A stretch of 64,000 nucleotides of DNA from Alphaproteobacteria bacterium (GCA_016699305.1 CP064970.1:389647-453646); one strand, 5' to 3'. Shown: positions 4,960 through 56,248, counted from the first letter of the stretch. Program-made: numbers and translations. Notes: generated by a model not told the origin, from the sequence alone.

Positions 4960-5131
4960 ACGCCTATCTTCCTGATAAGATGGATCACGGCTCGGCCTTC
5001 TTGGCTAAACGGGAGCGCATCTCGCGTCGATTGATCAAATTTTCAACAAATCCTCGGCATAATCAGCCGGATATCAATCATGGCCGTTTTATCATCCGAT
5101 ATAGCCCGATCTTGGGCAGAGGTGATGTGCC

Positions 5132-5980: not shown

Positions 5981-6193
5981 AGAATCTTCCGGTAAAAGCA
6001 CGGAAGTCCTGGAACGCCCATTATACTGCAACAACGCCCTAGGCTCGAGCAGGCATGATGCTAAGCGGGCTGTTTAAGGAATTAGCAGAAAGATGCGGCG
6101 CTGACCCAAACGAGTAGTAAGAAAGAGAGGCGATCATCAAGGACCCAACCCATTTAACAGTCCTAGGCCGATCGCCTCAATCCCCCTTTTTGA

Positions 6194-7531
6194 CTAATAC
6201 CGATAACGATCGTCCTTATATGGACCACCCACCGGCACGCCCAGATAGTCGGCTTGCTTCTGGCTTAGATGAGTCAGCTTGACGCCGATCTTATCCAAAT
6301 GTAGCCGCGCGACCTTTTCATCCAACTGTTTGGGCAGGGTATAGACCTTGTTTTCGTATTTCTTGTGGTTCTGCCACAGCTCGATCTGCGCCAAGACCTG
6401 GTTGGTAAAGGACGCGCTCATCACGAAGCTGGGATGGCCCTTGGCGCAGCCCAGATTGACCAAGCGTCCCTTGGCCAGCACGATCAGGCGCTTGCCATCG
6501 GGGAAGACCACCTCATCCACCTGAGGCTTCACCTCTTCCCAACGATAGTTACGCAACGAGGCGATATCGATCTCCGAGTCGAAATGGCCGATATTGCACA
6601 AGATCGCGCCGCTCTTCATGTGGCGCATGTGGTCCAAGGTCACCACATCGACATTGCCGGTGGCGGTGACGAAGATATCGCCATAGCCGGCGGCCTCCTC
6701 CATCGTGGTGACCTGATAGCCTTCCATCGCCGCCTGCAAGGCCGTGATCGGGTCGATCTCGGTCACCAAAACGCGCGCGCCTTGGCCGCGCAGCGAGGCG
6801 GCGGAACCCTTGCCCACATCGCCATAGCCGCACACCACGGCCACCTTGCCCGCCAACATGACGCCGGTGGCGCGTTTGATGCCATCCACCAAGCTTTCGC
6901 GGCACCCATACAGATTATCGAATTTCGACTTGGTGACGCTGTCATTCACATTGATCGCCGGAACCATCAGATTCCCCGCGCGGGCGCGTTCGTACAGACG
7001 ATGCACGCCCGTGGTCGTCTCCTCGGACAAGCCCCTGACATCCTTCATCAGGTCTGCATGATTCGCATGCATGACCTCGGTCAGGTCGCCGCCATCGTCC
7101 AACAGCATATTGGGACGCCAGCCATCGGGACCGGTGATGGTTTGTTCGATGCACCACAAAGATTCGTCTTCGGTCTGGCCCTTCCAGGCAAAAACAGGGA
7201 TGCCAGCCGCCGCGATGGCCGCCGCCGCCTGATCCTGTGTCGAATAGATGTTGCATGAGGACCAGCGAATTTCCGCGCCCAATTCACGCAAGGTTTCAAT
7301 CAGAACCGCCGTTTCCGTGGTCATGTGCAGACAGCCCGCGATGCGCGCGCCCTTAAGCGGCTTGGTCTTGCCATACTCCGCGCGCAGGGCCATCAGGCCG
7401 GGCATCTCGCCTTCGGCAATGCGGATTTCTCGCCGACCCCAATCGGCCAACGACATATCTTGTACCTTGAAATCACCCGAAGCCGGCGGGGCGGCATGAT
7501 CGTTTTTGGGGGAAGCGGCCTTGGCCGACAT
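6194..7531 (-). CDS. ahcY: adenosylhomocysteinase
   Basis: Translation matches S-adenosyl-L-homocysteine hydrolase throughout ([21 protein letters not shown]..., NAD-binding [10 protein letters not shown]); start moved to second ATG (7531) because AAGGAGG lies 7 nt upstream. Confidence 0.93.
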
Positions 7532-7651
7532 GGGATCCTCCTTAGAAAGACTTTGTTTCATGTGATAACGGAAGGCGCAGCATATCCCATGCCAATGCCT
7601 ACGGCAACCAGGCCAACCGACCTAAAATAAGCCGAACCTAGTACGAGACTT

Positions 7652-8662
7652 TCACAGCCAGCCCTTACGTTTGAACAACCACACGGGAACCACGGCGGAT
7701 AGCGCAATCACTACCAATGCCAAAGGATAGGCCCAAGGCTGCTCCAATTCGGGCATATGGCGGAAATTCATTCCGTAAATGCTGGCGATCAAAGTCGGCG
7801 GAAGAAATGCCGCAGCGGCAACCGAAAATATCTTGATGATGTTGTTTTGCTCGATGGAAATCAGTCCCAACACGGCATCCAGTAGAAACGTGGTCTCATG
7901 CGCCAGGAATTGCGCATGGTCGCTCAGCGAGCGCAAATCCGTGTCCAGGGTGCGGATGCGCGAGCTTTGCTCCTTGGTCAAACGGCCCAAGAAGTTCGTG
8001 TCCATAAAGACCTGAAGCCGCAACATGCCGTTCAGGCATTCGCGGATTTTGTGGATCATGTCGCCCGACTGGCTAAGGCCGCGCATGGCCGTATCCAGCC
8101 ATTTGCCGTGATAGCGGGGGGTCAGTTGATGCTTTTTCTTTTGTTCCAGCGCGTGATCGGCGTTCTGCTGGAATATCTCGGTTGAAAGATCGTCGATCTG
8201 ATGGGCGACATATTCCAGAATATCCGCCGTGCGATCAGCCACCGCATCCAACATGCACAAAGCCGCGTCAACAGAAGTCGCCAACATGTCCGGCTGACGG
8301 CGGATGCGGAACGCGAAGGTATCCAGGGCGCGCGGTTTGCAAAACCGCACCGTCAACATATGGGTGGGCGTGATCACGATGGTCAAATCGTCGACAGTCG
8401 GATGAATGCTCTCGGCCGCCGAGAGGATCGAGGTGGTCATGAACAAAGCATCGCCTTCCAGATATAAACGACTGGATGCCTCGATCTCCTCCATTTCAGA
8501 CAGAGTCGGCAGGTCCAAGGATAATGCCTTCGAGATATAATTCCGTTCTTCCTCCTCGGGCTGCAACAGATCGATCCACACAGTGCTCTCGGGAACGTCC
8601 TGCCCCGGTTCCAAACGCACGTCATGCACGCGGCCATCACGCAAGGCATAGGCGGTAATCAT
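7652..8662 (-). CDS. corA: magnesium/cobalt transporter CorA
   Basis: C-terminal two TM helices with YGMNF (GMN) signature; ATGA overlap with folD stop. Confidence 0.88.
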
Positions 8663-9546
8663 TGCGGCACCCCCATTCCCTGGAGCGCGCAGGCCGCCTC
8701 AAGCGTATTGGCAAACAGACACGCAATCGTCATCGGTCCCACGCCGCCGGGGACAGGCGTGATGAATCCGGCTCGGGAGGCCGCCTCGTCAAACGCCACA
8801 TCGCCCACAAGAGTGGTCTTGTCTGCCTGTTCGAGTCGGCTGATCCCCACATCGATCACGCATGCCCCGGGCTTGATCCAATCGCCGCGCACCATCCCAG
8901 CCTGACCTGTGGCCGCGACAAGGATATCCGCCTGCCGAGATTCGGCAGCCAGATCGCGGCTGCGCGAATGGGTGCTGGTGACCGTGCAATCCGCATGCAG
9001 CAGCATGGCCGCCATGGGACGCCCCACAAGATTCGAACGTCCCAACACCACAGCTTTTAATCCTGACAGATTCTCACCCAAAGCCTCGCGGATCAGCATC
9101 ATGCATCCGCGCGGTGTGCAAGGCTGCAACCCCGGCAAGCCCAGATTCAAACGCCCGACATTCAACGGATGAAGACCATCGACATCCTTATCCGGCGCGA
9201 TGGCGGCAATGATGGTCGAAGCGGATAACGGCTTGGGCAAAGGCATCTGCACCAATATTCCATGCACGTCGGATGCTTGGTTCAGCGTGCCAATCAGGGC
9301 CAGCAGCTCATCTTGTGGGATCGTGGCCGGCAGGGTATGCACCACCGAATGCATTCCGATACTCTCGGCGGTACGTTTCTTATTGCGGATATAGATTTGG
9401 CTGGCCGGATCATCGCCCACCAACACCGCCGCCAAACATGGAACCGTGCCGCCCCGCTTTTGCAGCACATCGACCTTGCGCGACACATCGCCCAAAAGCC
9501 GTGTCGATAACGCCTTGCCGTCTATGATGCGGGCCGCTGTCGTCAT
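8659..9546 (-). CDS. folD: bifunctional methylenetetrahydrofolate dehydrogenase/cyclohydrolase
   Basis: [11 protein letters not shown]...[16 protein letters not shown]... FolD family; start set at [11 protein letters not shown] (ORF track starts 15 codons upstream). Confidence 0.88.
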
Positions 9547-9571
9547 GATGCGTTCCGATATCTCCTCGTCA

Positions 9572-9853
9572 TCACAATGGGCCGTATTCACGCATCAAAT
9601 TGCGCAAAAATACGATCACAAGGATCACCACGATCGGCGATAGGTCCACGCCACCGATGCTGGGAAGGAAGCGACGAATGCGGGCCAAGACCGGCTCGGT
9701 GATCTGGTGCATAAAGCCCAGAATTGCCCGAACCGCCGGGTTATAGACATTGATGACGTTGAACGCCACCAACCAACTGACGATGGCCGAAATGATGATG
9801 ACCCACAAATACATATCCAGCGCCAAATCCAGCACGATGAACAACGATGTCAT
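9572..9853 (-). CDS. yggT: YggT family membrane protein
   Basis: 93-aa hydrophobic protein from internal Met [28 protein letters not shown]...; GGAGA RBS upstream; ORF-track N-terminal extension judged spurious. Confidence 0.65.
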
Positions 9854-10112
9854 CGGGTATCTCCATTCTTGTTTTCGTCTCCCGCACCCATCGGGCGGGT
9901 TCGTGGTGGAGGTTAGCAGCCTGGAAGGTCGCGTCAATCTTTTGCAGATTGACACCAAGAGATGAAAAAAAGCTCAAGTTGCGCTTATCGCCACAAGAAA
10001 GCAGCGCCGCGAGGGAAAGCGGCGCTGCCTGGGGAGGGATAAATGATGTAAAGAAAACACAGAAGAAGCAGTAATCACCCACGCAAAAAACCGATTTTTT
10101 CCATGGCATCCC

Positions 10113-10946
10113 TTATGTTGGCACATATGTCGATTTTGTAAGGGAACGCCATTCGTGATCGTGATCAGGCCGAGTCAGCTTGTGTTGATGGCGATTTCCA
10201 GCGTGTACTGCACGAGTGGGACCCGGATCTCGTGAACCTGGCTTGGTAATCAACGAATTACAGTAGTCTGACGCCACTTTAGGTAACGTAACATGGGCCT
10301 TTGCTGCCGCATCAACACACTGCTGGGCCGCTTTGGGGGCCAATGCTCTGTTAATAGCCATGACGACCTGAATAGCTTGATAATTGTCGATATGATCCTC
10401 TTCATGCCGGGATATCTCTGCTTTTGTGGTCGTAACCTCTTTGGAGATAGCGTCAAAGCTGTTGACTTTGCCTTCGGCATGAACTGAAAAGTCATCTATA
10501 GCTCTGGTGTCGCCAGTATAAGCCGCATATGAGGCAACCTCGCGAATGACCCCTTCACGAAGTTCAGCAACATCTTTGCTCGACCCAATCGGAACAAATT
10601 TAGGGTCAAGGAAACGCGCGAAATGTAAGAGCGCCAGATGACGGTAATAGGGCGAATTGTCACTATCCTTGTCATCTGGATGTGACTCATCCGAATTCAG
10701 CACATTATAGATCGCCCCAAGCCTTTCACGATAGACATTCTTTAGACTCACACATTGATCATCGCTAGCCCGATTATCGCCTGGGGCCTGCATTTTCTCG
10801 AAAAAATCTTCCATCACGGCCTTGTAATTTGCACGGCCAGCCTCCATCAATTTATAGCATTCAGTTGGCGGTATCGAGACGAGATTGAGACCAGGTTTTT
10901 CCGACCGATGTTCGAGAGCCGCATAACCAGATACGATGGTACTCAT
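10113..10946 (-). CDS. hypothetical protein, lower-GC gene adjacent to tRNA
   Basis: ORF with AGGAGGG RBS before second Met (MSTIVSGYAALEH); visibly AT-richer than flanking core genes; no motif recognised. Confidence 0.5.
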   Translation of the reverse strand: MSTIVSGYAALEHRSEKPGLNLVSIPPTECYKLMEAGRANYKAVMEDFFEKMQAPGDNRASDDQCVSLKNVYRERLGAIYNVLNSDESHPDDKDSDNSPYYRHLALLHFARFLDPKFVPIGSSKDVAELREGVIREVASYAAYTGDTRAIDDFSVHAEGKVNSFDAISKEVTTTKAEISRHEEDHIDNYQAIQVVMAINRALAPKAAQQCVDAAAKAHVTLPKVASDYCNSLITKPGSRDPGPTRAVHAGNRHQHKLTRPDHDHEWRSLTKSTYVPT

Positions 10947-11273
10947 TGTTCCCTCCTGCCTCTCGTTATTCATGGCGTCATAGACATAACTTCTATGATG
11001 AAATTATATTTGTATAAAATTAAAAACGCAACTATTCTTTATGTGAATTGTCATATAGTTTCATTTTATCACAACTTGTTATGAATATTTACAGGATATA
11101 AAAACACCTACTTATCTAGTGGGCTTGATTTTTGCGGGTTTCGCTCTTTTTCCCCTTCTCATAATCCGTTTCTCGCCCCGCGCGCTGATTTGGTATGCAG
11201 ATAACTCCGTTAGGCATACACACATCGCCCTGCCGGACAGGATAAATCTGTGGTAACGCCGAAAAAGAAGTAT

Positions 11274-11348
11274 TGGTAGCAGCGGAGGGATTTGAACCCC
11301 CGACCAAGGGATTATGATTCCCCTGCTCTACCGCTGAGCTACGCTGCC
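11274..11348 (-). tRNA. tRNA-Met (anticodon CAT; elongator Met or Ile2-lysidine type cannot be distinguished)
   Basis: Minus-strand sequence GGCAGCGTAGCTCAGCGGTAGAGCAGGGGAATCATAATCCCTTGGTCGGGGGTTCAAATCCCTCCGCTGCTACCA folds by hand into cloverleaf: 7-bp acceptor, U8, D-arm GCTC/GAGC, anticodon loop AUCAUAA, T-loop TTCAAAT, encoded CCA. Confidence 0.85.
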
Positions 11349-11547
11349 ACAAACGGAGACGCAGCATATACTGATCGGCTGGCTCTGCCAAGGGATTCAG
11401 CAATTCTGGTTTTATGGGAACGAGGAAGTTTAAAACGAGGAAAGGGTAAAAGCAGAAGCTGTTAGTGTCGGCACGTTGTCCATGTGGGAAGTTTTTACAT
11501 GCGCCTGACAATCTTAATCATTCAACTGGCTTGGAAGTTGAAGAACC

Positions 11548-13110
11548 TCACGCACCCTGCAAAAGGCGACGCAGCAGATCCACATCCTGGCGCAGGTCCT
11601 TATCCGTCTGGCACAGCTCCTCCACCTTACGCACGGCGTGAATGACCGTGGTGTGGTCGCGACCACCGAAACGACGCCCGATATCCGGCAGAGAGCGCGA
11701 GGTCAGCTGCTTGGCCAGATACATCGCCACCTGACGCGGACGAGCCACCGCGCGCTCACGGCGCGTGGAGCACATCTCGGCCAGGCGCATATTGTAATGC
11801 TCGGCCACGCGACGCTGGATATCCTCGACCGTCAAGGTGCGGTCATGGGTGCGCAGAATGTCGTGCAGCACCTCGCCCACCATATCGAGGGAGATGGTCT
11901 GCCCCACGAGGTCGCCATGCGCCGTCAAACGGTTCAACGCGCCCTCTAATTCACGCACATTCGACGTGATGCGATGCGCCAGGAACTCCAACACATTGGC
12001 GGGAACGCCGCGCCGCGACTGCTCGGCCTTTGACTGCAAGATACCCAAGCGCAGCTCATAGCTGGTGGGATGAATATCCGCGCACAGCCCCCAGCCTAGA
12101 CGCGAACGCAAGCGTTCCTCGATTTGGTCCAGTTCTCGCGGAGATTTATCTGCGGAAACGACGATCTGTCGGTTCTCATCCACCAAGGCGTTAAAAGTAT
12201 GAAAGAACTCTTCCTGTGTGGAATCTTTGCCGCTGATGAACTGCACATCATCGATCATCAGCACATCGACCGAGCGAAACTCCTCTTTGAACGCCATCGT
12301 GTCTTTAAAGCGCAACGCCCGTACGAACTGATACATAAATTTTTCAGCCGACATATAGATCACGCGCCGACCGTTGTTCTGGCCACGAATATGCCAGGCA
12401 ATGGCATGCATCAAATGCGTCTTGCCCAGCCCCACGCCTCCATACAGAAACAGGGGGTTAAACGACACAGAGGATGTTTCGGCCACGCGCCGCGCGGCGG
12501 CATGGGCCAATTCATTGGGCTTACCCACAACGAATTGGTCAAAGGTAAAGCGGGCATCCAGCGGCGCGCATAAATCATCGCGCCAGTCTTTCATGGCCGA
12601 GCTTACCGCCTTGGCAGGCAGACCGTTCACAGGCAACGCCGTCCCGATCAGCGGCATGGCCGTGCGGTCCGAATTTGCGGGAAGGTCGCCGATGGCACTT
12701 GTCTGGGTCTGACCAACCACAACGGGCTGTCCCGCAGATGCAACCTCGACCGATGGCAAAACGCCAAAGCGGATGTCTTCCAGCTCGTATCCCGCCTCGC
12801 GCCAAGTGGCCGAGATCATGGCACCGTAATGCGTCTCCACCCAATCGCGCATGAATCGCGTGGGCAGGCTGATGACCACCGTGCCGTCTTGGCCGCAGCG
12901 CTCACAGCGCATGCTTTCTAGCCAGCGGCGGAAATTTTCAGTGCCGACTTTTTTGCGCAACAAGGCGCGCACACTTAGCCACAACGCTTCGGTCGAAGGG
13001 GCGGAATCGGAATCGGCATTTGAAAGACTATGCGCAGCCGAGCGGCTGACCGCGGATGGGTGAATGTTGTCGGTGTGAATGGCCCGTGCGCCCATGCCCC
13101 CTACCCCCAT
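11548..13110 (-). CDS. dnaA: chromosomal replication initiator protein DnaA
   Basis: AAA+ Walker A GVGLGKTHLMHAIA, box VII/sensor region and C-terminal DNA-binding helix-turn-helix (RQVAMYLAKQLTSRSLPDIGRRFGGRDHTTVIHA). Confidence 0.95.
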   Translation of the reverse strand: MGVGGMGARAIHTDNIHPSAVSRSAAHSLSNADSDSAPSTEALWLSVRALLRKKVGTENFRRWLESMRCERCGQDGTVVISLPTRFMRDWVETHYGAMISATWREAGYELEDIRFGVLPSVEVASAGQPVVVGQTQTSAIGDLPANSDRTAMPLIGTALPVNGLPAKAVSSAMKDWRDDLCAPLDARFTFDQFVVGKPNELAHAAARRVAETSSVSFNPLFLYGGVGLGKTHLMHAIAWHIRGQNNGRRVIYMSAEKFMYQFVRALRFKDTMAFKEEFRSVDVLMIDDVQFISGKDSTQEEFFHTFNALVDENRQIVVSADKSPRELDQIEERLRSRLGWGLCADIHPTSYELRLGILQSKAEQSRRGVPANVLEFLAHRITSNVRELEGALNRLTAHGDLVGQTISLDMVGEVLHDILRTHDRTLTVEDIQRRVAEHYNMRLAEMCSTRRERAVARPRQVAMYLAKQLTSRSLPDIGRRFGGRDHTTVIHAVRKVEELCQTDKDLRQDVDLLRRLLQGA

Positions 13111-13353
13111 CTGTCTACCTCTACCCTATGAAAGGCCTGCTCATGTCCGCCTTCCTGACCGAGCCACGGCATCGCACCGCACACTCCTTAGAAAGGATCC
13201 CTGAACAAGCCCAACTGCGCTGTTTTTGAACACGTCATACATTCGACTTTGACCTGGAAAGCCCGTTAGCCCCGCTTCTTCGAGGGTGAGCAGACTTTAC
13301 AAATGATAACGTCGATTGCAAAAATATTATCTCTAAAAAATCAGAAAAAATCA

Positions 13354-13384
13354 AGTGTTCATTTGGCAACACCAAATGAACACT
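13354..13384 (-). terminator. putative rho-independent terminator downstream of rpsT
   Basis: Perfect 13-bp inverted repeat AGTGTTCATTTGG-CAACA-CCAAATGAACACT; on the minus strand it is followed by TGATTTTTTCTGATTTTTT. Confidence 0.45.
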
Positions 13385-13564
13385 AGTATTTCAGGAGCGT
13401 TTCTTGTTTTTTCACTTGCGCTACTATAGTTATAAATTCTGTCGCAAGCGGACTTTATTTATTCAATACTCTTAATGCATCATTAATATTTACCTATCAA
13501 TGGGATTTAGACGCAATCATGCAACGAAGCTATAAAACGATGGCCGCAAGTTGCGGCGCATCGC

Positions 13565-13846
13565 CTAAGCTTGAGCGGCAGGTGTCTTGAGGGCCTTGAT
13601 ACGGCTGCAAAGGCGCGAAATCTTGCGCGATGCCGTATTGCGATGAAGGACCCCCTTAGAGACCCCACGAGCCAGCTCAGGCTCAGCCTGGCGGAACGCT
13701 TCCAGGGCGGCATCCAACTGGCCGGACTGAAGGCTGGTCTCAACTTTCTTAACCGCCGTGCGGATACGCGACAAATGCGCGCGATTGCGCAAGCGTCGGC
13801 GGGCGGTTTGACGAACTCGCTTAATGGCAGAGGCGTGATTGGCCAT
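13565..13846 (-). CDS. rpsT: 30S ribosomal protein S20
   Basis: [36 protein letters not shown]... typical S20; start set at internal Met of ORF-track 13565..13906. Confidence 0.9.
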
Positions 13847-14002
13847 GTGATTTAAGATCCCAAGCGGTGAAGATGCATTCGAAGAAGACCGTTGTATCCT
13901 TCCCAAATGTTTGCGTCAAGCCTTCATCGTGATGCCTTATCCTGATTGAAATTGAACACGCCTATCTTGACGAAAAGACCTGGCGGCTCCATATCATGAG
14001 AC

Positions 14003-14524
14003 ATGACATTGCCACATCTTGTGATCGCCCCGGATCCGCGCCTACGCCGCAAAACGCCCCTTGTGGGCAAAGTCGATTCCCGCATCGCCAAATTGATGGA
14101 TGAGATGCTGACCGTGATGTATCCGGGTAACGGCATCGGCTTGGCCGCGCCGCAAATCGGTGTGCTGGAAAGCGTGATCGTCATGGACACGGGCGAAAAG
14201 CGTGACGGCACCGAGGCCATCTACTTGGCAGACCCGGAGATTGTCTGGAAAAGCGAAGAAACGATGGTTTATCGTGAAGGTTGTTTGTCCTTACCCGATA
14301 TCTGGATCGAGATCACCCGGCCCGAGAAGATCCGCGTCAGCTATCTGGACCAACATAATAAGTCGCGCGAAATTGAGGCCAAAGGCCTGGAGGCCATCTG
14401 CCTTCAACATGAGATCGACCATCTACATGGCGTTTTGTTCGTGGATTATGTCTCGCAATTGAAGCGTGAGATGATCCTGCGCCGCTTGGACAAGGCTAAA
14501 AAACACGGGCGGATTGAAACGTGA
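14003..14524 (+). CDS. def: peptide deformylase
   Basis: Motifs [25 protein letters not shown]. Confidence 0.92.
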
Positions 14525-15177
14525 ATGTAAATATGGATACATCGGACGCGGCCAAGCCTGCCGCATCGGCTGTTCGCACAGCCATAGAGCAGGACGCCGA
14601 TCTGCTGCATGTTGTATTGGGCGAAAATCTGCTGGACCTGCATGAAAATCGAGGTGGCCTAACGGCCTGTGTGCGGCGTGAAACGATTGCTGATTGCCTG
14701 CAACGCCTACGCACGGATCGCACATGCGCATTCGATGAACTGATGGATGTATGCGGGGTCGATTATCCCGCCCGCACGCCACGTTTTGAGGTGGTGTATC
14801 AACTCCTTAGCCTGACGCGCAATCGCCGCCTGACGATTAAGGTTGCCGTGGCCGAGGATGAATCCGTTCCCAGTTCTGCCGGTGTCTTCCCTGCCGCCGG
14901 ATGGTTTGAACGTGAAGTGCTGGATCTTTTTGGCATCACGTTTTCGGACCATCCCGATCCGCGCCGTATCCTGACGGATTATGGCTTTGAAGGCCATCCT
15001 TTGCGTAAGGATTTTCCCCTGACCGGCTATGTGGAAGTCCGCTACGATCCCGATCAGCGCCGCGTGGTGCACGAACCCGTGCATCTAACCCAAGATTACC
15101 GCAACTTCGATTTTCTTAGCCCTTGGCAAGGCGATGTTCCCCTTACTTTGCCCGGCGACGAAAAAGCTTCAAAATAA
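14521..15177 (+). CDS. nuoC: NADH-quinone oxidoreductase subunit C family protein (stand-alone)
   Basis: [47 protein letters not shown] matches the 30-kDa subunit signature; no other nuo genes flank it. Confidence 0.8.
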
Positions 15178-15259
15178 AGGCGTTTCGCGAATTTCAGCGG
15201 ATAACCCTAGGATAACTTCATAGCTCCGAGCCTCTACGAGAGCCTAGAGGAAACGCAAA

Positions 15260-15982
15260 TCACGCATGCCCGATCTCAGCAGATAGACTGGCGGGGGTGA
15301 TGCCCAATTGGGCGATGGCGCGTTCCCATTTGGTTTCCAAATGGTCGTCGAACAACAAGGTCTCGGCGGACGGGGCGACCAGCCAGCCATTGGCTTGAAG
15401 CTCGGTATCCAACTGCCCCGGACCCCATCCGGCATAACCCAGCGCCAGGAAACAGCGATTCGGGCCATGGCCTTGCGCGATGGCGCGTAGGATATCGACG
15501 GTCGCGGTCAGGCACACTTGGTCATCCACCGGCACCGTGCCCTCGGACTGATAATCCGCCGAATGCAGTACAAAGCCCCTATTGTTTTCGACCGGTCCAC
15601 CGTAATGGATGCGAACGGGCGGCGTGGTGGAATCTGTTTTGATCTCCATCTGGTCGAGCAAAGAACAAAAATCCAGCGCACCAAATAGCCGATTGACCAC
15701 AACCCCCATGGCACCCGCCGGGCTGTGTGAGCAGATATAAATCACTGTGCGCGCAAAGCGGGGATCGGCCATGCCGGGCGTGGCGACCAACAAAGTCCCT
15801 GCCAAAGATCCCGAATGCTTTTCTGTCTTGTGTTCGGACAAAGCTTCGCCTTCCTCAGCACGAGCGCGAGGGCGGATCTGCGGCTTTTTCTTGTCCTTTG
15901 CAGTCAAGGCCTGGTTCGTCTCCTGAACGTATGTTTTCCCTCGATCCGCGAAAACGATGCATGATCGAGTGAATGGTGTCAC
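15260..15982 (-). CDS. YqgE/AlgH family protein (UPF0301)
   Basis: LLVATPGMADPRFARTVIYICSHSPAGAMGVVVNR motif; 5' end uncertain (ORF-track start overlaps divergent dsbD-like start). Confidence 0.7.
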   Translation of the reverse strand: MTPFTRSCIVFADRGKTYVQETNQALTAKDKKKPQIRPRARAEEGEALSEHKTEKHSGSLAGTLLVATPGMADPRFARTVIYICSHSPAGAMGVVVNRLFGALDFCSLLDQMEIKTDSTTPPVRIHYGGPVENNRGFVLHSADYQSEGTVPVDDQVCLTATVDILRAIAQGHGPNRCFLALGYAGWGPGQLDTELQANGWLVAPSAETLLFDDHLETKWERAIAQLGITPASLSAEIGHA

Positions 15983-17711
15983 AATCTATTTAACAAATAT
16001 GAGTATAAAACTTGGCGAAGGCCCAAGAAAACCAGAAAGGTTAAGACGTTTGAGGATTCTTCAATTCCCATCATTCCGTCCTGCCACGATAGGTGCCATG
16101 GCCTTAATGGCCTTGGTCCTTATTGTTTCTTTTACTATCGATACAAAAAAATCTTTAGCTAAGGAACCCGAATGGGTACGGGGGCAATATGTATCGGCAC
16201 GACTAATATCTGGCGTCATGGCCGTGGGAGATTTGTCTGCCGTCCCCATGGGAGTGGGATTACGGCTGGATCCAGGCTGGAAAACCTATGGGCCGAATCC
16301 AGGACCCGCCGGATTACCTGCGCGATTGGATTGGGGGTTGTCGGACAACGTATCAAGCAGTCACATCGCATGGCCGCCGACCATGGATTTTGAGTTCCAA
16401 GGCATCCATGCGCGCGGCTATCAAGGTGATGTGCTGTGGCCCATGACAGTACGGCCCAAGGCGGTAGGTCAGCCGATAAATATGTATTTACGGCTGGAGA
16501 TGCTGGTCTGCAAAGACGTGTGCATCCCGCAAAGCCTGACCTTGCCCATGTTCCTGACTTCCGGTCAGGCATTTCCCAGTTCCTATGCCGAGACTTTGGA
16601 CGCAGCGCATAATCGCCAGACCGAACCTGCATCCGTACATAACGAGAATGGAGAAGGAAATTCTGGCATCTCATGGATTTTGGCTTTTGGACTGGCATTA
16701 CTGGGCGGGTTAATCCTGAACCTGATGCCTTGCGTACTGCCGGTCTTATCGTTGAAGCTGCTGGCGGTATTGGGGCATGGCGGCGGCAATCGGCGTGACG
16801 TGCGATGGTCGTTTCTGGCCACGGCGGCAGGGATTGTCTTTTCCTTTTGGCTGCTGGCGGGATTCACGGTGATCTTCAAATGGGCCGGTGGAAATGTGGG
16901 ATGGGGACTGCATTTCCAGAACCCCATCTTTCTGATCGGCATGATCCTGGTACTGATGCTATTCGCCGCGAATTTATGGGGCCTGTTTGAATTCCGTTTG
17001 CCGCAGTTTCTGGCTCGAAGCCTCTCCGCGCGGCACAACGGGATGCTCGGCGCGTTTCTAACAGGATGCTTCGCCACCCTATTGGCCACGCCCTGCTCGG
17101 CACCCTTTCTAGGAACGGCGGTGGGTTTTGCCTTGGCCAGCGGCGCTTGGGACATTATTACCATCTTCACGGCCCTTGGTCTGGGGCTGGCCGCGCCTTG
17201 GTTGATCGTGGCCGCATGGCCGCGACTGGCCACCGCCCTGCCGCGTCCGGGGGCCTGGATGATCCCGCTGCGACGCGTCATGGGCGTGGGGCTGGCCGTG
17301 ACGGCGCTGTGGCTTGGCGCGGCGGCACTGCCCGATTCCTTGCGCACCTCCGATGATCCGCGTTGGCGACATTTTGACGAACGCGCAATCTCTGAGCTGA
17401 CATCTCGCGGGGCCGTGGTTTTTGTGAACATCACCGCCGATTGGTGCCTGACCTGTCTGGCCAATAAGAAACTGGTCTTGGAACGGCCAACCATCCGCGC
17501 CCAATTATTCGATCAGCCGCGCCGATTGGTGGCCATGCAAGGCGACTGGACTCATCGTGACGAGGGAATCACCGCCTATCTGCTGCGCCACAAGCGTTAC
17601 GGCATTCCCTTTAGCATCGTCTATGGCCCCGGCGCGCCCGAAGGGATTATTTTGCCTGAATTCCTTCATGAGGATGATATTTTGAAAGCTTTGAACCAAG
17701 CCAAAGGCTGA
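15957..17711 (+). CDS. DsbD-family thiol:disulfide interchange / cytochrome c biogenesis membrane protein with C-terminal thioredoxin-like domain
   Basis: Central polytopic domain with LMPCVLPVLSL and LATPCSAPFLG Cys motifs; C-terminal WCLTC thioredoxin motif; start codon uncertain. Confidence 0.8.
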   Translation: MHDRVNGVTIYLTNMSIKLGEGPRKPERLRRLRILQFPSFRPATIGAMALMALVLIVSFTIDTKKSLAKEPEWVRGQYVSARLISGVMAVGDLSAVPMGVGLRLDPGWKTYGPNPGPAGLPARLDWGLSDNVSSSHIAWPPTMDFEFQGIHARGYQGDVLWPMTVRPKAVGQPINMYLRLEMLVCKDVCIPQSLTLPMFLTSGQAFPSSYAETLDAAHNRQTEPASVHNENGEGNSGISWILAFGLALLGGLILNLMPCVLPVLSLKLLAVLGHGGGNRRDVRWSFLATAAGIVFSFWLLAGFTVIFKWAGGNVGWGLHFQNPIFLIGMILVLMLFAANLWGLFEFRLPQFLARSLSARHNGMLGAFLTGCFATLLATPCSAPFLGTAVGFALASGAWDIITIFTALGLGLAAPWLIVAAWPRLATALPRPGAWMIPLRRVMGVGLAVTALWLGAAALPDSLRTSDDPRWRHFDERAISELTSRGAVVFVNITADWCLTCLANKKLVLERPTIRAQLFDQPRRLVAMQGDWTHRDEGITAYLLRHKRYGIPFSIVYGPGAPEGIILPEFLHEDDILKALNQAKG

Positions 17712-21163: not shown

Positions 21164-24100
21164 TTACTTCCAGTTCGCCGCAATCACCGTGGCCAAAGAG
21201 TCCTGATAATGTTGCGGCAGGGTGTTCTCATTCGCCGCAGGCGGCGCGAATGCGGCCATGGCATTGACCAAATTCTCGACCTGGTTCGCCAGCAAAGCCT
21301 TGCCGTCCGAAGTCTTGAATTGCTCAATCTGGGCCACCGCTCCGCTGCCATACCAGCCACTGATGGTCATGCAATCTTCCGTTCCGATGATGCTGACCTC
21401 GAGATCGCTGTTCAGCTTTCTGAACCAGATTTGGTCGCTGGCGATACCTGAACCAAACGACATCATGTCGCTATTGCCGGCAGTGCTGTCATATTCCTGG
21501 ATGGAGTCAACATACGAGCCACGAGCCATCACATAGGTGTCGTTGCCCTGCCCGCCAATCAGCCAATCACGCCCTGTGCCACCATCCAGCGTGTCATTGC
21601 CCGCATCGCCGTTGAGTGTATCATTGCCATCCTGGCCTTGCAGCAGATCGTCTCCATAGCCGCCGTTTAGAATATCGGCACCCACGCCGCCCGCCAGTCT
21701 GTCGTTGCCATCTTCGCCATTGATTTGATCATCGCCGCCATCGCCGCCCAGCGAGTCATGACCCGAGCGGCCATAGACGTAATCATTGCCGTCGCCGCCA
21801 TTGATGGTGTCCGCCGTGGCATAGCCAGTTAGAACGTTATCTTCCGTTGTTCCTGCCAAAACCTTGGCCTTCACCGCATCGACTCTCCAGACGGTTCCAT
21901 CGGCAAATTTGATATTCTCGATCACACTGTTCGTTGCGCCGTCCTGAGTGAAATAGCTCGACACATTCAGCGTATCATCTGTGCCTACGAGGCTGATCAC
22001 CAGGTTGCCATTGTCGTTCCTTAGCATCGTCTGTGCAGCGGAGATTCCCGCACCCAACAGAACCGTATCGGCATTCACGCCCACGGCGTCAACGTCACCG
22101 TTGTTGATCGTGTCTTGCCCGCTTCCAAAGCCAAACAGATAAGTATCGGCACCGTTGCCCCCACTCATCTGATCATCACCTGTACCACCGTCGAGCGTAT
22201 CGGCTCCGTCTCCCCCGTAGAGATTATCGCGACCTTCCATACCGCGCAGCACATCATTCCCCGCGCCGCCATCCAGTGTATCGTCGCCAAAACCCGCACC
22301 GCCGGTCAGCGTATCGTTACCGCCATCACCGTATAAACAGTCATTGCCGTAACCGCCGTCGATGATGTCATTGCCGCCATGCGCATAGATCGTATCATCG
22401 CCAGAGGCCCCGGCCAGGGAATCAGCCGTCTCAAATCCTATCAGAGTGTCACTGGAGTTGGTGGCGACCGTCACCTTGGCCTTGATCGCCGCCACATTCC
22501 ACACCGTGCCATCGGCGAATCTGACGTTCTCGACGGCATGAGGCGTCGCTCCATCCTGACTGAAATAGTTTTGAACCGTCAGTTTGTCATTGGTGCCGAT
22601 GATCGATAAGGCCAAATTATCCCACTCGCGAGAGGCCACCACATCCGCGACCGCCACGCCGGCAGAAAACTGGATGGTATCGGCTTTTACGCCCAACGCA
22701 TCCACGTCGTAATTATTGATCGAATCCTGTCCGCTGCCACGCCCGAACAGATAGACATCCGCGCCATCGCCTCCCGACAACACATCATTGCCCAAGCCAC
22801 CATTAAGAGTGTCATTGCCGCCATAGCCGTATAGCGAGTCGTCACCCACCCCACCCAGCATGCTTTCCGACGCCGCCGTGCCCGCCTTGTACATGGCAGC
22901 AGGAGCGGCGCTCAATCTGCTCTTGACCGCGGCATAGTCCCATACCGTACCGTTGGCAAAGCCAATAAGCTCCACCGCGTTGGCTGTCGTGCCGTCCTGC
23001 GAGAAATAGCTTTGAACCGTCAGCCTGTCATTGGTGCCGATGATTGACAGAACCAGATCATCGCCCAAACGGGAAGCAGCCACATCCGCCGGCACGATTC
23101 CTGCCTGAAAAATGATGGCGTCCCTGGACTGGCCGAGAGCATCATTGTCATTATTGCTGATGGTATCCTGACCGCTGCCGCGCCCGAACATATAGCTATC
23201 AGCCCCATCACCCCCGCCAAGCGTGTCATTGCCTAGACCACCATAGATGCGGTCATTGCCCGATTCCCCATAGAGGGTATCGTCACCCTCATCGCCGTAG
23301 ATCGCATCATCATCGGCGCCGCCATATATATAATCATTGCCCGCGCCGCCCAATAACCCGTCATAGCCAGCGCCGCCACTGATGTTGTCAGTGCCGTCAC
23401 TGCCGCTGATCGTGTCAGATCCATCATAGCCATTGATCTGGTCATCGCCCGCGCCGCCATTGATGTTGTCCGCGCTGGCATAGCCGTACAGCGTGTCTTT
23501 TTCATTCGTGCCCAGCAAGGTCTTGGCCTTCATTGTGGCCACGTCCCATACCGTGCCGTTAGCAAAGCCAATAAGCTCCACCGCGTTGGCTGTCGTGCCG
23601 TCCTGCGAGAAATAGCTTTGAACCGTCAATCTGTCATTGGTGCCGATGATCGACAGAACCAAACTATCGCCCAGACGGGAAACAGCCACATCCGCCGGCA
23701 CGATTCCTGCCTGAAAAATGATGGCGTCCCTGGACTGGCCGAGAGCATCATTGTCATTATTGCTGATGGTATCCTGACCGCTGCCGCGCCCGAACATATA
23801 GCTATCAGCCCCATCACCCCCGCTAAGAGTGTCATTGCCTAGACCGCCATACAGACGATCATTGCCCGATTCCCCATAGAGGGTATCGTTACCCCCGTCG
23901 CCGTAGATCGCATCATCACCAGCACCACCATTGAGGCTGTCATTGCCCGCGCCGCCGAGCATCCCGTCATGGCCATCCTCACCATAGAGGACATCGGCCC
24001 CATCATCGCCATACAGCGAATCGCTGCCGCCATTGCCTTGGATTGTGTCCCCACCCGCGCCGCCACGAATAGTCTCTGCACTGACAGAGCCATACAGCGA

Positions 24101-52765: not shown

Positions 52766-53560
52766 ATGCGCGTCCTGCTCGTCGAAGACGATGCCTCGGT
52801 TTCCAAGACGCTGGAGCTATTGCTTCAAGCCGAAGGATTTGTCGTGGATATCACGGATCTGGGCGAAGACGGCCTGGAGATCGGCAAGATCTATGATTAT
52901 GACATCATCATCTTGGATCTGATGCTGCCGGACATCGACGGCTATGAAGTCTTGCAACGCTTGCGCCAAGCCAATGTGACGACGCCGATCATGATCTTGT
53001 CGGGCTTGTCTGAGTTAGAAAACAAGCTGCGCGGTCTGGGCCGTGGTGCCGATGATTATCTAACCAAGCCTTTTGACCGGCGCGAATTGGTGGCGCGCAT
53101 CCACGCCATTATCCGCCGCAGCAAGGGACACTCGGAAAGCATTATTAAGACCGGTCGCCTGACGGTCAACCTGGACGCGCGTACCGTGGAGATCGAGGGC
53201 CAGCCTCTGCATCTGACCGGCAAAGAATATGGGATCATCGAACTGCTTTCCCTGCGCAAGGGTACGACCCTGACCAAGGAAATGTTCTTAAATCATCTGT
53301 ATGGCGGCATGGACGAGCCGGAATTGAAGATCATCGACGTATTCGTGTGCAAATTGCGCAAGAAACTAGCCCAAGCCACCGGAGGCGATAACTATATCGA
53401 GACCGTCTGGGGCCGTGGCTATGTCCTGCGCGATCCCAATAATCCGGGAGGCATCGCGCCGATCGGTGATCTGACGGCAGATTCACAATCGGGCGGCGGA
53501 CTCCCATCGTCATCGTCTCCCACGCGTAAAGCCTCTGCTACACATCAAATCGTCGGCTAA
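52766..53560 (+). CDS. ctrA: cell-cycle response regulator CtrA (OmpR family)
   Basis: MRVLLVEDD...[30 protein letters not shown] receiver domain and winged-helix ([14 protein letters not shown]); ~30-aa Ser/Gly-rich C-terminal extension. Confidence 0.85.
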
Positions 53561-53640
53561 AACATCACTGCCCAAATCCGACATCCCGCCCAATGATTGG
53601 ATTGGGCGGGATGTTTCTTATTGCTGTAAACATTACACAC

Positions 53641-54090
53641 TCATAGAAAGTCGATCGCGTTTGCAGCCAGAATCAGGGTGACAGCCATAATGGGCAGCCA
53701 TAGCGGATAACGTCCGCGCCGCGCCATGATCACGAATAGGCTGGCGAATAAGGTCGCCGATAGCAGCAGCAGAGCGGCTTGCAGGGTTAGGCCGAAAATA
53801 GCCGCCAGGATCGCACCGCAAAGTCCCATTCCCAAATCGAACGCCAATGCCTCTATGCCAATGGAAGTATGGCAGGTACGGCAGCGGCCCTTAAAGATCA
53901 GCCAGGAATAAACGGGGATCAGGTCGCGTGAGGTCAGTTTCCGCGCGCAAGCGGGGCAGTAGGACGGCTTGACCAGAATATCCTCGCCCCGTGGCAGACG
54001 ATAAGCCAGCACTCCCGCAAAGCTGCCAAGGACAGAGCCCAGGGCGAACCCCGCCAGGAACAAAAAGATTGTGGGAAGCGATGCCATCAC
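53641..54090 (-). CDS. prepilin peptidase N-terminal-domain protein (tetra-Cys zinc module, no catalytic domain)
   Basis: 149 aa; CPAC...CRTC motif between TM helices as in PilD N-terminal region; too short to hold both catalytic Asp regions. Confidence 0.6.
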   Translation of the reverse strand: MMASLPTIFLFLAGFALGSVLGSFAGVLAYRLPRGEDILVKPSYCPACARKLTSRDLIPVYSWLIFKGRCRTCHTSIGIEALAFDLGMGLCGAILAAIFGLTLQAALLLLSATLFASLFVIMARRGRYPLWLPIMAVTLILAANAIDFL

Positions 54091-54137
54091 GATGCGGATT
54101 ATGGCTTAGCGGAAATTCACTAGCAAATGCCTATATT

Positions 54138-54959
54138 TTAGTGGCCAACCCATTCCGCGCCTCCGAAAATTACGTCCTCGCGGTTTACCACGGAACTGAG
54201 CGGCGGCATGTCCAATACTGCACACGCTGACCTCTCTACAATAAGCTCCGGATTCGTTCGTGCCTTATGTTTGGGGGGAAGGGAAATCAGTTCCTTTGCA
54301 CTAAAGGGGGCTGATACAATACGCCGCTGAACATATGCACCTCGCTTGAATAGGGTCGGGTAGTTGTTCCAGTTCACGTCTTTTGCATGAAGCATGTCGT
54401 GCTTCTGCTGGCTACTTTTTCCTATAAGGTCCTTGTGGCTATAATATGCGCTTGCTGCCATGCTCAAGCTGTTTTTAGTGGCGTCAATTTCGCGCCATAG
54501 GAAAACGTTAGCAGCTTCTGTGCGGTTTGGAACATTCCATACCCGCGCGTCGAATGTCGGCATTTTATCGGCGTATATCGGCATTCTCTCAAGAATTAAG
54601 CGATAGAATACCAAAGTTGCCTGCGCAGCAAGCTGACTTGTCATCTTGGCCACGCGCCCATCAAACCAAATTTGACTCTGGAAAGTGTCGCAGTGCCAAG
54701 TCAAGGTTATCTCGTCGCTTTGTGTATAGCCCATACATGCGCCGGTATCGCGAACAAGTGCTAATGTTGTGTCAACCATACATCCTGAAAACGTCGCATC
54801 GAATGGTCGGTCCATACCACGTGTGAAGTTGTGAAATGATCTACCGTCAATCCGTGCCATAGCAGGTAACATTGGCATCAAGCGCCGATTCGCCTCTATC
54901 CCCTCATACAGCTTCATTCTGTTGCCAAGAACGTCTTTTATTGTTCTAAGCTTAAGCAT
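54138..54959 (-). CDS. tRNA(His) guanylyltransferase Thg1-like protein (3'-5' nucleotidyltransferase)
   Basis: ARIDGRSFHNFTRG and GYTQSDEITL match Thg1 family palm-domain motifs; moderately lower GC. Confidence 0.7.
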   Translation of the reverse strand: MLKLRTIKDVLGNRMKLYEGIEANRRLMPMLPAMARIDGRSFHNFTRGMDRPFDATFSGCMVDTTLALVRDTGACMGYTQSDEITLTWHCDTFQSQIWFDGRVAKMTSQLAAQATLVFYRLILERMPIYADKMPTFDARVWNVPNRTEAANVFLWREIDATKNSLSMAASAYYSHKDLIGKSSQQKHDMLHAKDVNWNNYPTLFKRGAYVQRRIVSAPFSAKELISLPPKHKARTNPELIVERSACAVLDMPPLSSVVNREDVIFGGAEWVGH

Positions 54960-55213
54960 CTAGTTCTCCATTTGGTTCCACGCAGAATTGCCACAGAGCC
55001 CTTCCATAATTCAACATTCTGAATTGATTATTCACAAAATTTTGTATTCGTAAAGGTGATGACGGCATTTGTCTGCTAACAAGGTTACAATGGCCACAGA
55101 TGGCCCGACACCATCAGCATGCGTTAGATTATATATGCACAAGATGGAGCCGCGCACAGACGGCAATCATTCCTGCCGTGCCTATTGCTGGCGGAACATG
55201 TTAAGTTCGAAAA

Positions 55214-56248
55214 ATGATCGTCCTTGGAATCGAAACAAGCTGTGACGAAACCGCCGCCGCCGTGGTGGATGGTGATCGCCGCATTTGGGCCAATAGCCTG
55301 TTTTCGCAGGCCGCCGATCATGCGCGCCATGGCGGCGTGGTGCCCGAGGTGGCGGCGCGGGCGCATCTGGAGGTCTTGGACGGCCAGATTCGGGCGGCCA
55401 TGGAGCAGGCGGGAATTGCTTGGGACTCCCTGGACGCCATCGCGGCGACATGTGGCCCGGGCCTTATCGGCGGGGTGTTGGTGGGCGCGACGACCGGCAA
55501 AGCTTTGTCCTTGGCGTTGGGTAAGCCCTTTGTGGCCGTCAATCATCTGGAAGCCCATGTGCTGACCGCGCGTTTGTCGAATGACGTGCCTTTCCCTTAT
55601 CTGTGTCTGCTGGTCTCGGGCGGCCACTGCCAATTGATCGAGGTGGAAGGGATAGGGCTCTATCGCTGCCTTGGGACCACGCTGGACGATGCCTCGGGCG
55701 AAGCCTTTGATAAGGCCGCGCGTCTCTTGGGTCTGGGTTATCCTGGCGGACCGGCGATTGAAAAAGCGGCAATTGGCGGTGATCCGACACGTTTTGCTTT
55801 GCCGTGCCCGATGTTGGGACGGCCTGGATGCGATTTTTCGTTCTCGGGCCTTAAGACCGCCTTGCGTCTGGTGGTAGAGAAACTGCCTTACCCTTTAAGC
55901 GAAGCAGATCGCAAGGATGCGGCCGCCGCATTTCAGAACTGCGTGGCGCGCGCTTTGGCCGACCGTACCGCCCACGCCGCGGAGATCTTTTCTCAGCGTC
56001 ACGGCCCAGGCGGCACCTTGGTGGTCGCGGGGGGCGTGGCGGCCAATGGGGCCATTCGCGCGGCTTTGCAACAGATAGCCGAAAAAGCCGGCTTGAACTT
56101 TGTGGCACCGCCCGTGGCCTTATGCACGGATAACGCCGCCATGATAGCCTGGGTCGGTGTGGAGCGGCGGCGATTGGGGCTTAGCGATTCCTTGGATATT
56201 CAACCTCGACCGCGTTGGCCGCTTTCCGAACTAAAAGGTGCCGCCTGA
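55214..56248 (+). CDS. tsaD: tRNA N6-adenosine threonylcarbamoyltransferase
   Basis: MIVLGIETSCDETAAAVV, HLEAHV, Kae1/Gcp fold. Confidence 0.92.
   Translation: MIVLGIETSCDETAAAVVDGDRRIWANSLFSQAADHARHGGVVPEVAARAHLEVLDGQIRAAMEQAGIAWDSLDAIAATCGPGLIGGVLVGATTGKALSLALGKPFVAVNHLEAHVLTARLSNDVPFPYLCLLVSGGHCQLIEVEGIGLYRCLGTTLDDASGEAFDKAARLLGLGYPGGPAIEKAAIGGDPTRFALPCPMLGRPGCDFSFSGLKTALRLVVEKLPYPLSEADRKDAAAAFQNCVARALADRTAHAAEIFSQRHGPGGTLVVAGGVAANGAIRAALQQIAEKAGLNFVAPPVALCTDNAAMIAWVGVERRRLGLSDSLDIQPRPRWPLSELKGAA

Follow-up and report, generated by a model that had tools for sequence, protein, structure and literature searches.

The gene at positions 54138 to 54959 of the window (the whole 64-kb stretch of Alphaproteobacteria DNA that was analyzed) is best explained as an intact, very probably active Thg1-like protein (TLP) gene of a phage type, which was probably acquired horizontally and whose product is predicted to carry out 3'-5' RNA repair. 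We give this reading a probability of roughly 75%. To our knowledge, Thg1-like proteins are the only known polymerases that work in the 3'-5' direction, and we know of no bacterial or phage member for which a physiological substrate has been established. The deposited protein is already named correctly at the family level, and phage Thg1 proteins and TLPs are already catalogued (PHROG 4717, 201phi2-1 gp319). It has also been suggested earlier that such genes enter bacteria laterally and that they serve RNA repair in conflicts. The present analysis places the window protein in a phage-type clade, describes its gene as a lone insert resembling a cassette, and notes that the activation residue is changed from Lys to Arg across the clade.

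The protein and its active site

The gene and the signals 5' of it are as follows.

54138 to 54959, minus strand: intact TLP gene, 273 amino acids, ATG start (ORF call, Pfam, PHROG, BtTLP match, AF2 and Foldseek)
54966 to 54969, minus strand: Shine-Dalgarno sequence GGAG, 6 nt 5' of the TLP ATG, read from the sequence
55027 to 55054, minus strand: weak sigma-70-like promoter match, TTTACG-16-AATAAT, 5' of the TLP gene (consensus match only)

The TLP ORF is free of frameshifts and stop codons and is full length, with a Shine-Dalgarno sequence and with invariant residues that extend through the C-terminal region. The number of sigma-70-like sites in the TLP region is not above that in shuffled sequence, and an Rfam scan of positions 53400 to 55400 at E<=1 detected zero RNA families. 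The earlier note had placed a Thg1-like ORF at 54138 to 54959 adjoining tsaD. These coordinates are exact, the neighboring gene matches the tsaD model TIGR03723, and the protein matches Pfam Thg1 (PF04446) with an E value of 1.3e-25 and 90.3 bits (cut-off, 29.2), its residues 13 to 144 spanning profile positions 2 to 130 of 130. The Pfam Thg1C match is sub-threshold, and a comparison with NCBIfam gave no match for the TLP.

By sequence, the closest solved structure is that of BtTLP (4kgk; E=2.8e-36, TLP residues 9 to 212), whereas eukaryotic Thg1 and archaeal TLP structures match the window TLP with E values of only 1e-11 to 9e-8. An AF2 model built from 115 diverse homologues has a pLDDT of 96.7 and a pTM of 0.91; an earlier model, built from 31 sequences that were all >=70% identical, had a pLDDT of 62.5 and was discarded. 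When the retained model was compared with the PDB by Foldseek, 32 of the 32 matches at E<=1e-3 were Thg1/TLP chains, with BtTLP (4kgm/4kgk) at the top, TM scores normalized to the target of 0.82 to 0.89 (0.87 for 4kgm), and rmsd values of 1.3 to 2.9 A. As modeled, the window protein has the palm-domain fold of the solved Thg1/TLP structures. The earlier note had allowed that the similarity might be limited to two short stretches; this is contradicted, since the similarity covers the whole protein.

Residue roles were taken from the BtTLP work (PMC3701042) and were assigned by alignment to BtTLP, CaThg1, and MaTLP. The codons discussed below are located as follows.

54846 to 54848, minus strand: codon of D38, the first metal-binding carboxylate (BtTLP D30, hTHG1 D29), in an ARIDG motif, by alignment; gtc on the plus strand is GAC on the minus strand
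54711 to 54719, minus strand: codons of S81-D82-E83, the SDE motif (BtTLP S74-D75-E76), with the second metal-binding Asp and the third conserved carboxylate
54807 to 54809, minus strand: codon of R51, at the position of the activation-step lysine (BtTLP K43, ScThg1 K44), from the residue table

The search for catalytic carboxylates by profile and alignment that had been proposed as a check found all three: D38, D82, and E83 align to D29, D76, and E77 of hTHG1 and to D30, D75, and E76 of BtTLP, and their codons were checked in the DNA. In the alignment of 115 sequences, S81 and E83 are invariant and D82 is >=90% conserved. The BtTLP residues E12, R28, R131, and R147, which act in NTP binding and nucleotidyl transfer, are all kept, as E19, R36, R139, and R156. 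Position 167 is Met, as in TLPs (BtTLP M158), where eukaryotes have Asn, and the window segment DATKNSLSM aligns with DASKNSISM of BtTLP, unlike DCHINNLYN of Candida. Because M167 replaces the eukaryotic Asn and the ATKNSLS segment is as in BtTLP, we classify the window protein as TLP-type and not as a bona fide tRNA-His guanylyltransferase. Thg1 itself extends tRNA-His by one G-1 without a template; judging from its residues, the window TLP, which lacks the Thg1 motifs for recognition of the tRNA-His anticodon and for this addition, is not expected to do so. The name "tRNA(His) guanylyltransferase" used by NCBI and PHROG is a family label, with no demonstrated function behind it.

At the position of the activation-step lysine the window TLP has R51. 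Arg is found here in the window TLP and in nearly all of the phage-type clade, and Lys is found only in distant relatives and in the reference enzymes. According to a 2019 review (PMC6471195), K43 is needed for ATP-dependent but not for GTP-dependent activation. Since the reported effect of K43 is confined to ATP-dependent activation, we read R51 as a variant and not as a loss of the catalytic core. The exchange could alter or weaken ATP-dependent activation, and its effect may be a changed preference for the activating nucleotide and not a loss of activity.

Phage-borne relatives and the presumed acquired segment

The TLP matches PHROG 4717 (phrog_4717) with an E value of 5.6e-79 over profile positions 2 to 211 of 250, which is far stronger than its Pfam match. 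By tblastn, it is matched in 162 phage records, including jumbo phages of Pseudomonas, Caulobacter, Burkholderia, Brevundimonas, and Ralstonia at 40 to 51% identity over about 95% of its length, and IMG/VR contains 22 TLP loci with identities of up to 81%. A database of 5.8 billion proteins contains the exact TLP, deposited as [quoted passage not shown] and from a 2.06-Mb contig, followed by >100 relatives at 70 to 81% identity. Among GTDB species genomes, relatives in this range of identity occur in a Phycisphaerales MAG, a "Dehalococcoidia" bin, a Nitrosomonadales MAG, Amphibiibacter, and Piscinibacter sakaiensis. Two of these, the contig of the "Dehalococcoidia" bin and the provirus locus of Piscinibacter, are also present in IMG/VR in identical form.

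The long contigs of close relatives are phage or prophage in six of the six examples examined (L007 partly). One carries a prophage-like series of small ORFs that includes HTH regulators (P0013); another has a terminase and an endolysin-like gene (P0010); a third is a prophage edge adjoining recR, ybaB, and dnaX (P0023); and the remaining three have a terminase, a portal, and an Acb2/Tad1-hairpin family match (P0081), RecT, YqaJ, NinB, and DnaB (P0074), or large proteins matching PHROGs of unknown function (L007). The phylogeny that the earlier note had called for points the same way: in a neighbor-joining tree, which has no support values, the window TLP is nested in a viral clade of IMG/VR and provirus sequences, the TLPs of jumbo phages form successive outgroups to it, and still further out are BtTLP, archaeal TLP, and eukaryotic Thg1. 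On these sequence comparisons, we assign the window gene to a TLP subfamily that circulates on phages, both temperate and jumbo. The statement that Thg1 proteins are uncommon in bacteria needs qualifying, as the family forms 5,575 clusters at 50% identity with E<=1e-3 in public data (1,097 with E<=1e-30) and is frequent in phages, as the 162 records indicate.

Two of the relatives (L004 and L019) are 89% identical in nucleotide sequence over the TLP gene +/-70 bp and share no more than that, which suggests a cassette-like exchange of the gene. Between the window TLP and its relatives dN is 0.15 to 0.25 and pS is about 0.8, so that synonymous sites are saturated; these values point to purifying selection on the family, in a qualitative sense only given the saturation. 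Because of the same saturation, the transfer would not be recent relative to any known relative.

The segment that contains the TLP gene and the genes on either side of it are as follows.

54080 to 55200, no strand: lower-GC segment of about 1.1 kb, TLP ORF plus both spacers, presumed acquired; boundaries approximate
53641 to 54090, minus strand: prepilin-peptidase-like gene, 149 amino acids, with A24_N (PF06750, A24_N_bact) as its sole Pfam domain, 47 bp 3' of the TLP stop; context only
55214 to 56248, plus strand: tsaD, a divergent housekeeping neighbor (TIGR03723, E=2.8e-120), with a 254-bp spacer to the TLP gene; context only

The TLP gene has a GC content of 0.488 and a GC3 of 0.515, compared with 0.563 +/- 0.052 and 0.643 +/- 0.099 in 42 long ORFs of the window. 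It is therefore about 1.3 to 1.4 SD low, and its earlier description as somewhat AT-richer than its neighbors is correct but concerns a modest difference. GC is 0.38 to 0.56 within the 54080-to-55200 segment, against 0.58 to 0.62 on its left side and 0.62 to 0.71 on its right. The value of 0.49 for the TLP gene is below that of every sampled relative (0.56 to 0.68), and therefore the donor is unsampled. DNA similarity to the relatives stays within the ORF (54153 to 54944, 69 to 73% identity).

The best relative of TsaD is 69% identical, against 81% for the TLP. The best TsaD matches are in Azospirillum, Inquilinus, and Nisaea, and the host, an uncultured alphaproteobacterium, therefore appears to be of a Rhodospirillales-like lineage. 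That a non-essential gene has closer kin, on viruses and in other phyla, than does the housekeeping TsaD is, at the level of sequence, strong evidence for a horizontal origin. We conclude that the TLP gene was probably acquired horizontally, and we infer the direction of transfer from the phyletic pattern only.

Part of the evidence that the earlier note had offered for this acquisition does not stand. The A24_N gene can fairly be called truncated, since most homologues of its product are full prepilin peptidases of about 250 amino acids that also carry PF01478, although short A24_N-only proteins recur in unrelated genomes. However, it is the 3' end (53641) that is truncated, and this end faces ctrA, not the TLP gene, and lies against the ctrA terminator hairpin (53580 to 53615), so we rejected TLP insertion as the cause of the truncation. 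Because of this orientation, and because the A24_N gene is never beside a TLP gene in other loci, the truncation is not evidence of acquisition. The acquisition itself is supported, with the phage-borne clade as the best evidence for it and the GC dip as a modest one.

The TLP gene is a lone, gene-sized foreign segment in the window, because similarity ends at the ORF and there are no phage-context genes, repeats, integrase, adjacent tRNA, or Rfam match. When genes from the loci of 40+ relatives were compared with the 64-kb window, there was no counterpart elsewhere in it, housekeeping matches aside; tblastx matches were re-filtered by HSP score for this purpose, since sum statistics attach tiny HSPs to a main match. 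Between 53500 and 55400 the flanking repeats are short direct or inverted ones only, at chance level. No integrase was found at the TLP locus, and the window has a single tRNA gene, for tRNA-Met at 11274. A prophage or integrated element at the locus was considered and rejected, since the neighbors are housekeeping genes and there are no att repeats or phage remnants. A search for a syntenic or empty site through A24_N and TsaD homologues yielded non-syntenic loci only, as the host lineage is without a close relative in the databases (TsaD relatives <=69%).

A gene that stands alone in this way, with neither functional partners nor a conserved neighborhood, could be a leftover, either the last gene of a decayed prophage or a random capture, intact but with no host role. 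The composition of the gene, which is not ameliorated to that of the host, its weak sole promoter match, and the presence of every close relative examined on a phage or prophage are all consistent with this. However, the ORF is full length, the catalytic, NTP-binding, and invariant C-terminal residues are kept, the Shine-Dalgarno sequence is good, and a 2-Mb genome is unlikely to hold a useless 0.8-kb gene intact for long. We therefore consider it rather unlikely that the gene is such a leftover, and we favor the interpretation that the chromosomal copy is retained as a tRNA quality-control or repair enzyme.

Predicted function and gene setting

The activity, substrate, and biological role of the window TLP are predicted from those of the characterized BtTLP and MaTLP, which perform Watson-Crick-templated addition to recessed 5' ends (PMC3061083, PMC4820378). 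By this analogy, its most likely function would be templated 3'-5' repair of 5'-truncated tRNAs. In the mechanism that we propose, the gene would have been transferred horizontally into its host as a segment of about 1.1 kb, the size of one gene, and its present lone state would be due either to single-gene capture or to a prophage that has wholly decayed around it. The TLP would bind an RNA whose 5' end is recessed, in the typical case a tRNA missing at least one 5' acceptor-stem nucleotide. ATP or GTP would activate a 5'-monophosphate end, whereas a 5'-triphosphate end would serve directly. The incoming NTP, paired to the 3' strand of the acceptor stem, would attack the activated 5' end via its 3'-OH, with two metal ions held by D38 and D82 serving catalysis. 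Repeated addition would restore the full acceptor stem.

On phages, TLP genes are found in accessory regions and, for distant relatives, within tRNA arrays, and these settings would fit an enzyme that maintains or repairs the tRNA pool while the phage is infecting. For phage Thg1, RNA repair directed against host defenses has been proposed (Anantharaman et al. 2010, PMC2904730; also Iyer et al. 2021, PMC7824862). The literature searched for experiments on phage TLPs contained only annotations and comparative-genomic remarks.

The tRNA arrays also bear on a different substrate. If the host gene or RNase P does not supply G-1 of tRNA-His, the TLP might instead mature this tRNA by templated G-1 addition opposite C73. 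TLPs do add G-1 opposite C73 in vitro, BtTLP complements yeast thg1-delta (PMC3061083), and in one instance a distant phage relative lies directly 3' of a tRNA-His gene (L030/L031). However, the window protein is of the TLP type, with M167 and with ATKNSLS in place of HINNLYN; its close relatives are on temperate phages with no nearby tRNA-His; and an essential host function is unlikely to depend on a patchily distributed gene of phage origin. In addition, the phage tRNA-His genes that were checked, two in number, both have an encoded G-1, which rules out in these cases that the phage gene lacks it. A role in tRNA-His maturation is, in our judgment, highly improbable, and repair of truncated tRNAs remains the preferred function.

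The immediate surroundings of the TLP gene in the window are housekeeping genes. Beyond tsaD are tatB, tatC, rsmE, and the T2SS/pilus E and F genes, and beyond the A24_N gene are the convergent ctrA (NF045991, E=2.3e-123) and then fliI and fliJ. The adjacency of TLP and tsaD was seen in no relative's locus examined. It is best read as coincidence, and a functional link between the two genes was ruled out, since the adjacency occurs in no other locus. Genes for polynucleotide kinase, RNA ligase, and Macro domain proteins, which occur in RNA-repair operons (PMC2904730), were looked for among the TLP flanking genes and none was present.

This setting matters for the suggestion that tRNA repair relates to defense, in which the TLP would be a domesticated conflict component that repairs RNAs 5'-damaged by toxins or phage nucleases, or that acts as the antidote to an RNase encoded elsewhere. 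Some loci of relatives have associations of this kind, and the proposals cited above that RNA repair counters host defenses are in line with them. Phage TLPs occur in accessory regions near an Acb2/Tad1-hairpin match and a weak Apyc1-like match. A chromosomal relative at 51% identity (L009) lies among an MmeI-type R-M enzyme, an AAA/PD-(D/E)XK nuclease, an HEPN(Swt1)-TPR protein, and an AbiEii-like ATPase, and another TLP is near a HipA kinase (L011). However, each of these associations at other loci is a single observation, not a statistic; the neighbors in the window are tsaD, tatBC, rsmE, ctrA, fliI, and pilus/T2SS genes; and PADLOC-DB gave no match at E<=0.01 for either the TLP or the A24_N protein. 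We know of no defense nuclease that trims tRNA 5' ends, although this statement is not exhaustive. Since the locus has no defense or RNA-repair neighbors and no PADLOC match, the defense idea that had been put forward for it stays speculation, and we regard a domesticated conflict component as very unlikely here.

A related and bolder proposal concerns the clade as a whole: the temperate-phage TLPs may be dedicated counter-defense or repair enzymes that restore tRNA 5' ends damaged when phage and host are in conflict, and a single copy would have been domesticated by this host as a stand-alone tRNA repair or immunity factor. We hold this to be unlikely. The features that mark the clade are the Arg at the ATP-activation position and the conserved C-terminal region. 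If this proposal is true, it would assign the first physiological role to a bacterial or phage TLP. More generally, if the phage-type clade is shown to repair tRNAs damaged in conflicts, the family gains a biological role, and its compact and diverse enzymes would become available for 5'-end RNA engineering.

Whatever the role, the locus illustrates that the closest kin of a "bacterial" TLP can be phage genes that move as single-gene cassettes, and it indicates that the "rare bacterial TLPs" are at least partly phage cargo.

Comparison with known systems

The eukaryotic Thg1 enzymes (yeast, human, and Candida; 3OTB, 3WBZ, and 5XOX) belong to the same superfamily as the window TLP and share with it the palm fold and the two-metal carboxylates. 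However, identity is about 18 to 22%, and the window protein has no HINNLYN-type segment and has M167 at the position of Asn158/161. The archaeal TLP of Methanosarcina acetivorans (5AXK-5AXN; Kimura et al. 2016, PMC4820378) is of the templated type, and the carboxylates and arginines are common to both proteins. It differs in that it matches with an E value of 1.4e-11 only, is on a different branch, retains the activation lysine, and diverges in its C-terminal part.

The proteins of the PHROG 4717 phages (Pseudomonas 201phi2-1 gp319, Caulobacter CcrPW gp308, and Burkholderia BcepSauron) are much closer, with 45 to 51% identity over 95 to 98% of the length, and they have in common with the window TLP the RP(F/Y)D Arg variant and the same C-terminal region. 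Whereas lytic jumbo phages carry the genes of these examples, the window gene is chromosomal and is not surrounded by phage genes, and its nearest relatives (70 to 81%) are on smaller, temperate-type phages and prophages, not on jumbo phages. In the literature searched, we found no experimentally characterized member of PHROG 4717 or of the phage-type clade.

The characterized enzyme most similar to the window TLP is BtTLP (PDB 4KGK/4KGM; Hyde et al. 2013, PMC3701042; Rao et al. 2011, PMC3061083), which has the same fold and about 36% core identity. The gene for BtTLP is chromosomal, in a Firmicute, and BtTLP falls outside the clade of the window protein. It has K43 where the window TLP and its clade have Arg (R51), and the C-terminal region of the window protein past about residue 212 is roughly 20 amino acids longer than that of BtTLP and has its own invariant residues. 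Nevertheless, BtTLP residues E12, R28, D30, S74, D75, E76, R131, R147, and M158 all have counterparts in the window TLP, and the activity predicted for the window protein is the same as that of BtTLP, namely, templated 3'-5' repair of 5'-truncated tRNAs.

Residue at the activation step

The window's Thg1-like protein (TLP; 54138-54959, minus strand, 273 aa) belongs to the phage-type clade, and across nearly all of this clade the activation-step lysine of the solved Bacillus thuringiensis enzyme (BtTLP K43) is replaced by arginine, within the motif RP[F/Y]D. In the window TLP this position is occupied by R51 (codon at 54807-54809). Two members have serine here, and lysine is retained only in more distant TLP relatives.

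Phage and chromosomal settings of TLP relatives

The TLP genes of contigs L004 (2302-3189) and L019 (5924-6813) share 89% nucleotide identity, which is confined to the gene plus or minus 70 bp, while the contigs are otherwise unrelated. This indicates that the TLP gene has been swapped between phage backbones as a single-gene cassette.

In distant relatives, the TLP gene is enclosed in phage tRNA arrays (L030/L031, 5608-6774; L016; L028; and L039, 6001-7185). A tRNA-His gene lies immediately upstream of TLP in L030/L031, and a phage-encoded tmRNA begins straight after TLP in L039. G-1 is DNA encoded in both of the phage tRNA-His genes that were checked.

L049 and L047 are temperate-phage contexts of close TLP relatives. 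In L049, an 81-aa protein matching the Acb2/Tad1-hairpin family (anti-CBASS/Thoeris sponge) is encoded 1.4 kb upstream of TLP (8320-8565), and in L047, an MBL-fold protein with a weak match to Apyc1 (anti-Pycsar) is encoded 1.3 kb downstream (4430-5206).

Ruminant-gut metagenome-assembled genomes (MAGs) labeled "Bacilli" and "Methanobrevibacter" carry TLPs of equal length with matching N-terminal sequence, and IMG/VR includes a viral contig identical to one of 157 kb from a MAG labeled "Dehalococcoidia" (pairs compared: L012 with L013, L016 with L017, and L005 with L023). The TLP contigs under these three labels are probably phage contigs that were mis-binned into MAGs.

A chromosomal TLP, 51% identical, is present on a 7.3-Mb contig of Candidatus Vecturithrix (L009). 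Its surroundings (4689-17158) resemble a defense island, with an MmeI/Eco57I-type restriction-modification enzyme, an AAA-ATPase/PD-(D/E)XK nuclease, a 1,013-aa HEPN(Swt1)-TPR protein, and an AbiEii-like AAA_21 ATPase as neighbors. A HipA toxin kinase is encoded near TLP in a Myxococcales MAG (L011, 11284-12759).

Other genes in the window

Features of the window:
10113-10973, minus strand: 286-aa ORF, GC 0.482, GC3 0.449
11274-11348: tRNA-Met, the only tRNA gene
21164-26788, minus strand: giant 1,874-aa RTX-repeat protein, from domain matches
28362-29519, minus strand: 385-aa ORF with SLT transglycosylase domain, GC 0.483
29565-30242, minus strand: 225-aa ORF, GC 0.336, GC3 0.27
53641-54090, minus strand: 149-aa prepilin-peptidase N-domain protein

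Proteins of 99 to 149 aa that consist of the Cys-rich prepilin-peptidase N-terminal domain and no other part occur in unrelated genomes and in differing contexts (window, 53641-54090; L041, 8001-8411; L042, 149-448). Instead of being remnants of pseudogenes, they may form a class of small proteins that are functional. The RTX protein has 25 HemolysinCabind stretches and 6 HCBP_related domains.

Pfam searches with the 286-aa and 225-aa ORFs gave no match. The 286-aa ORF, which is low in GC and adjoins the tRNA-Met gene, may be a further gene acquired at a tRNA site. Compared with the window means (GC 0.563, GC3 0.643), the 225-aa ORF deviates in composition far more than the TLP gene does, and the neighboring 385-aa ORF has a weak phage-tail-lysozyme match. 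The region from ~27 to 30.5 kb is probably a foreign island, separate from TLP.
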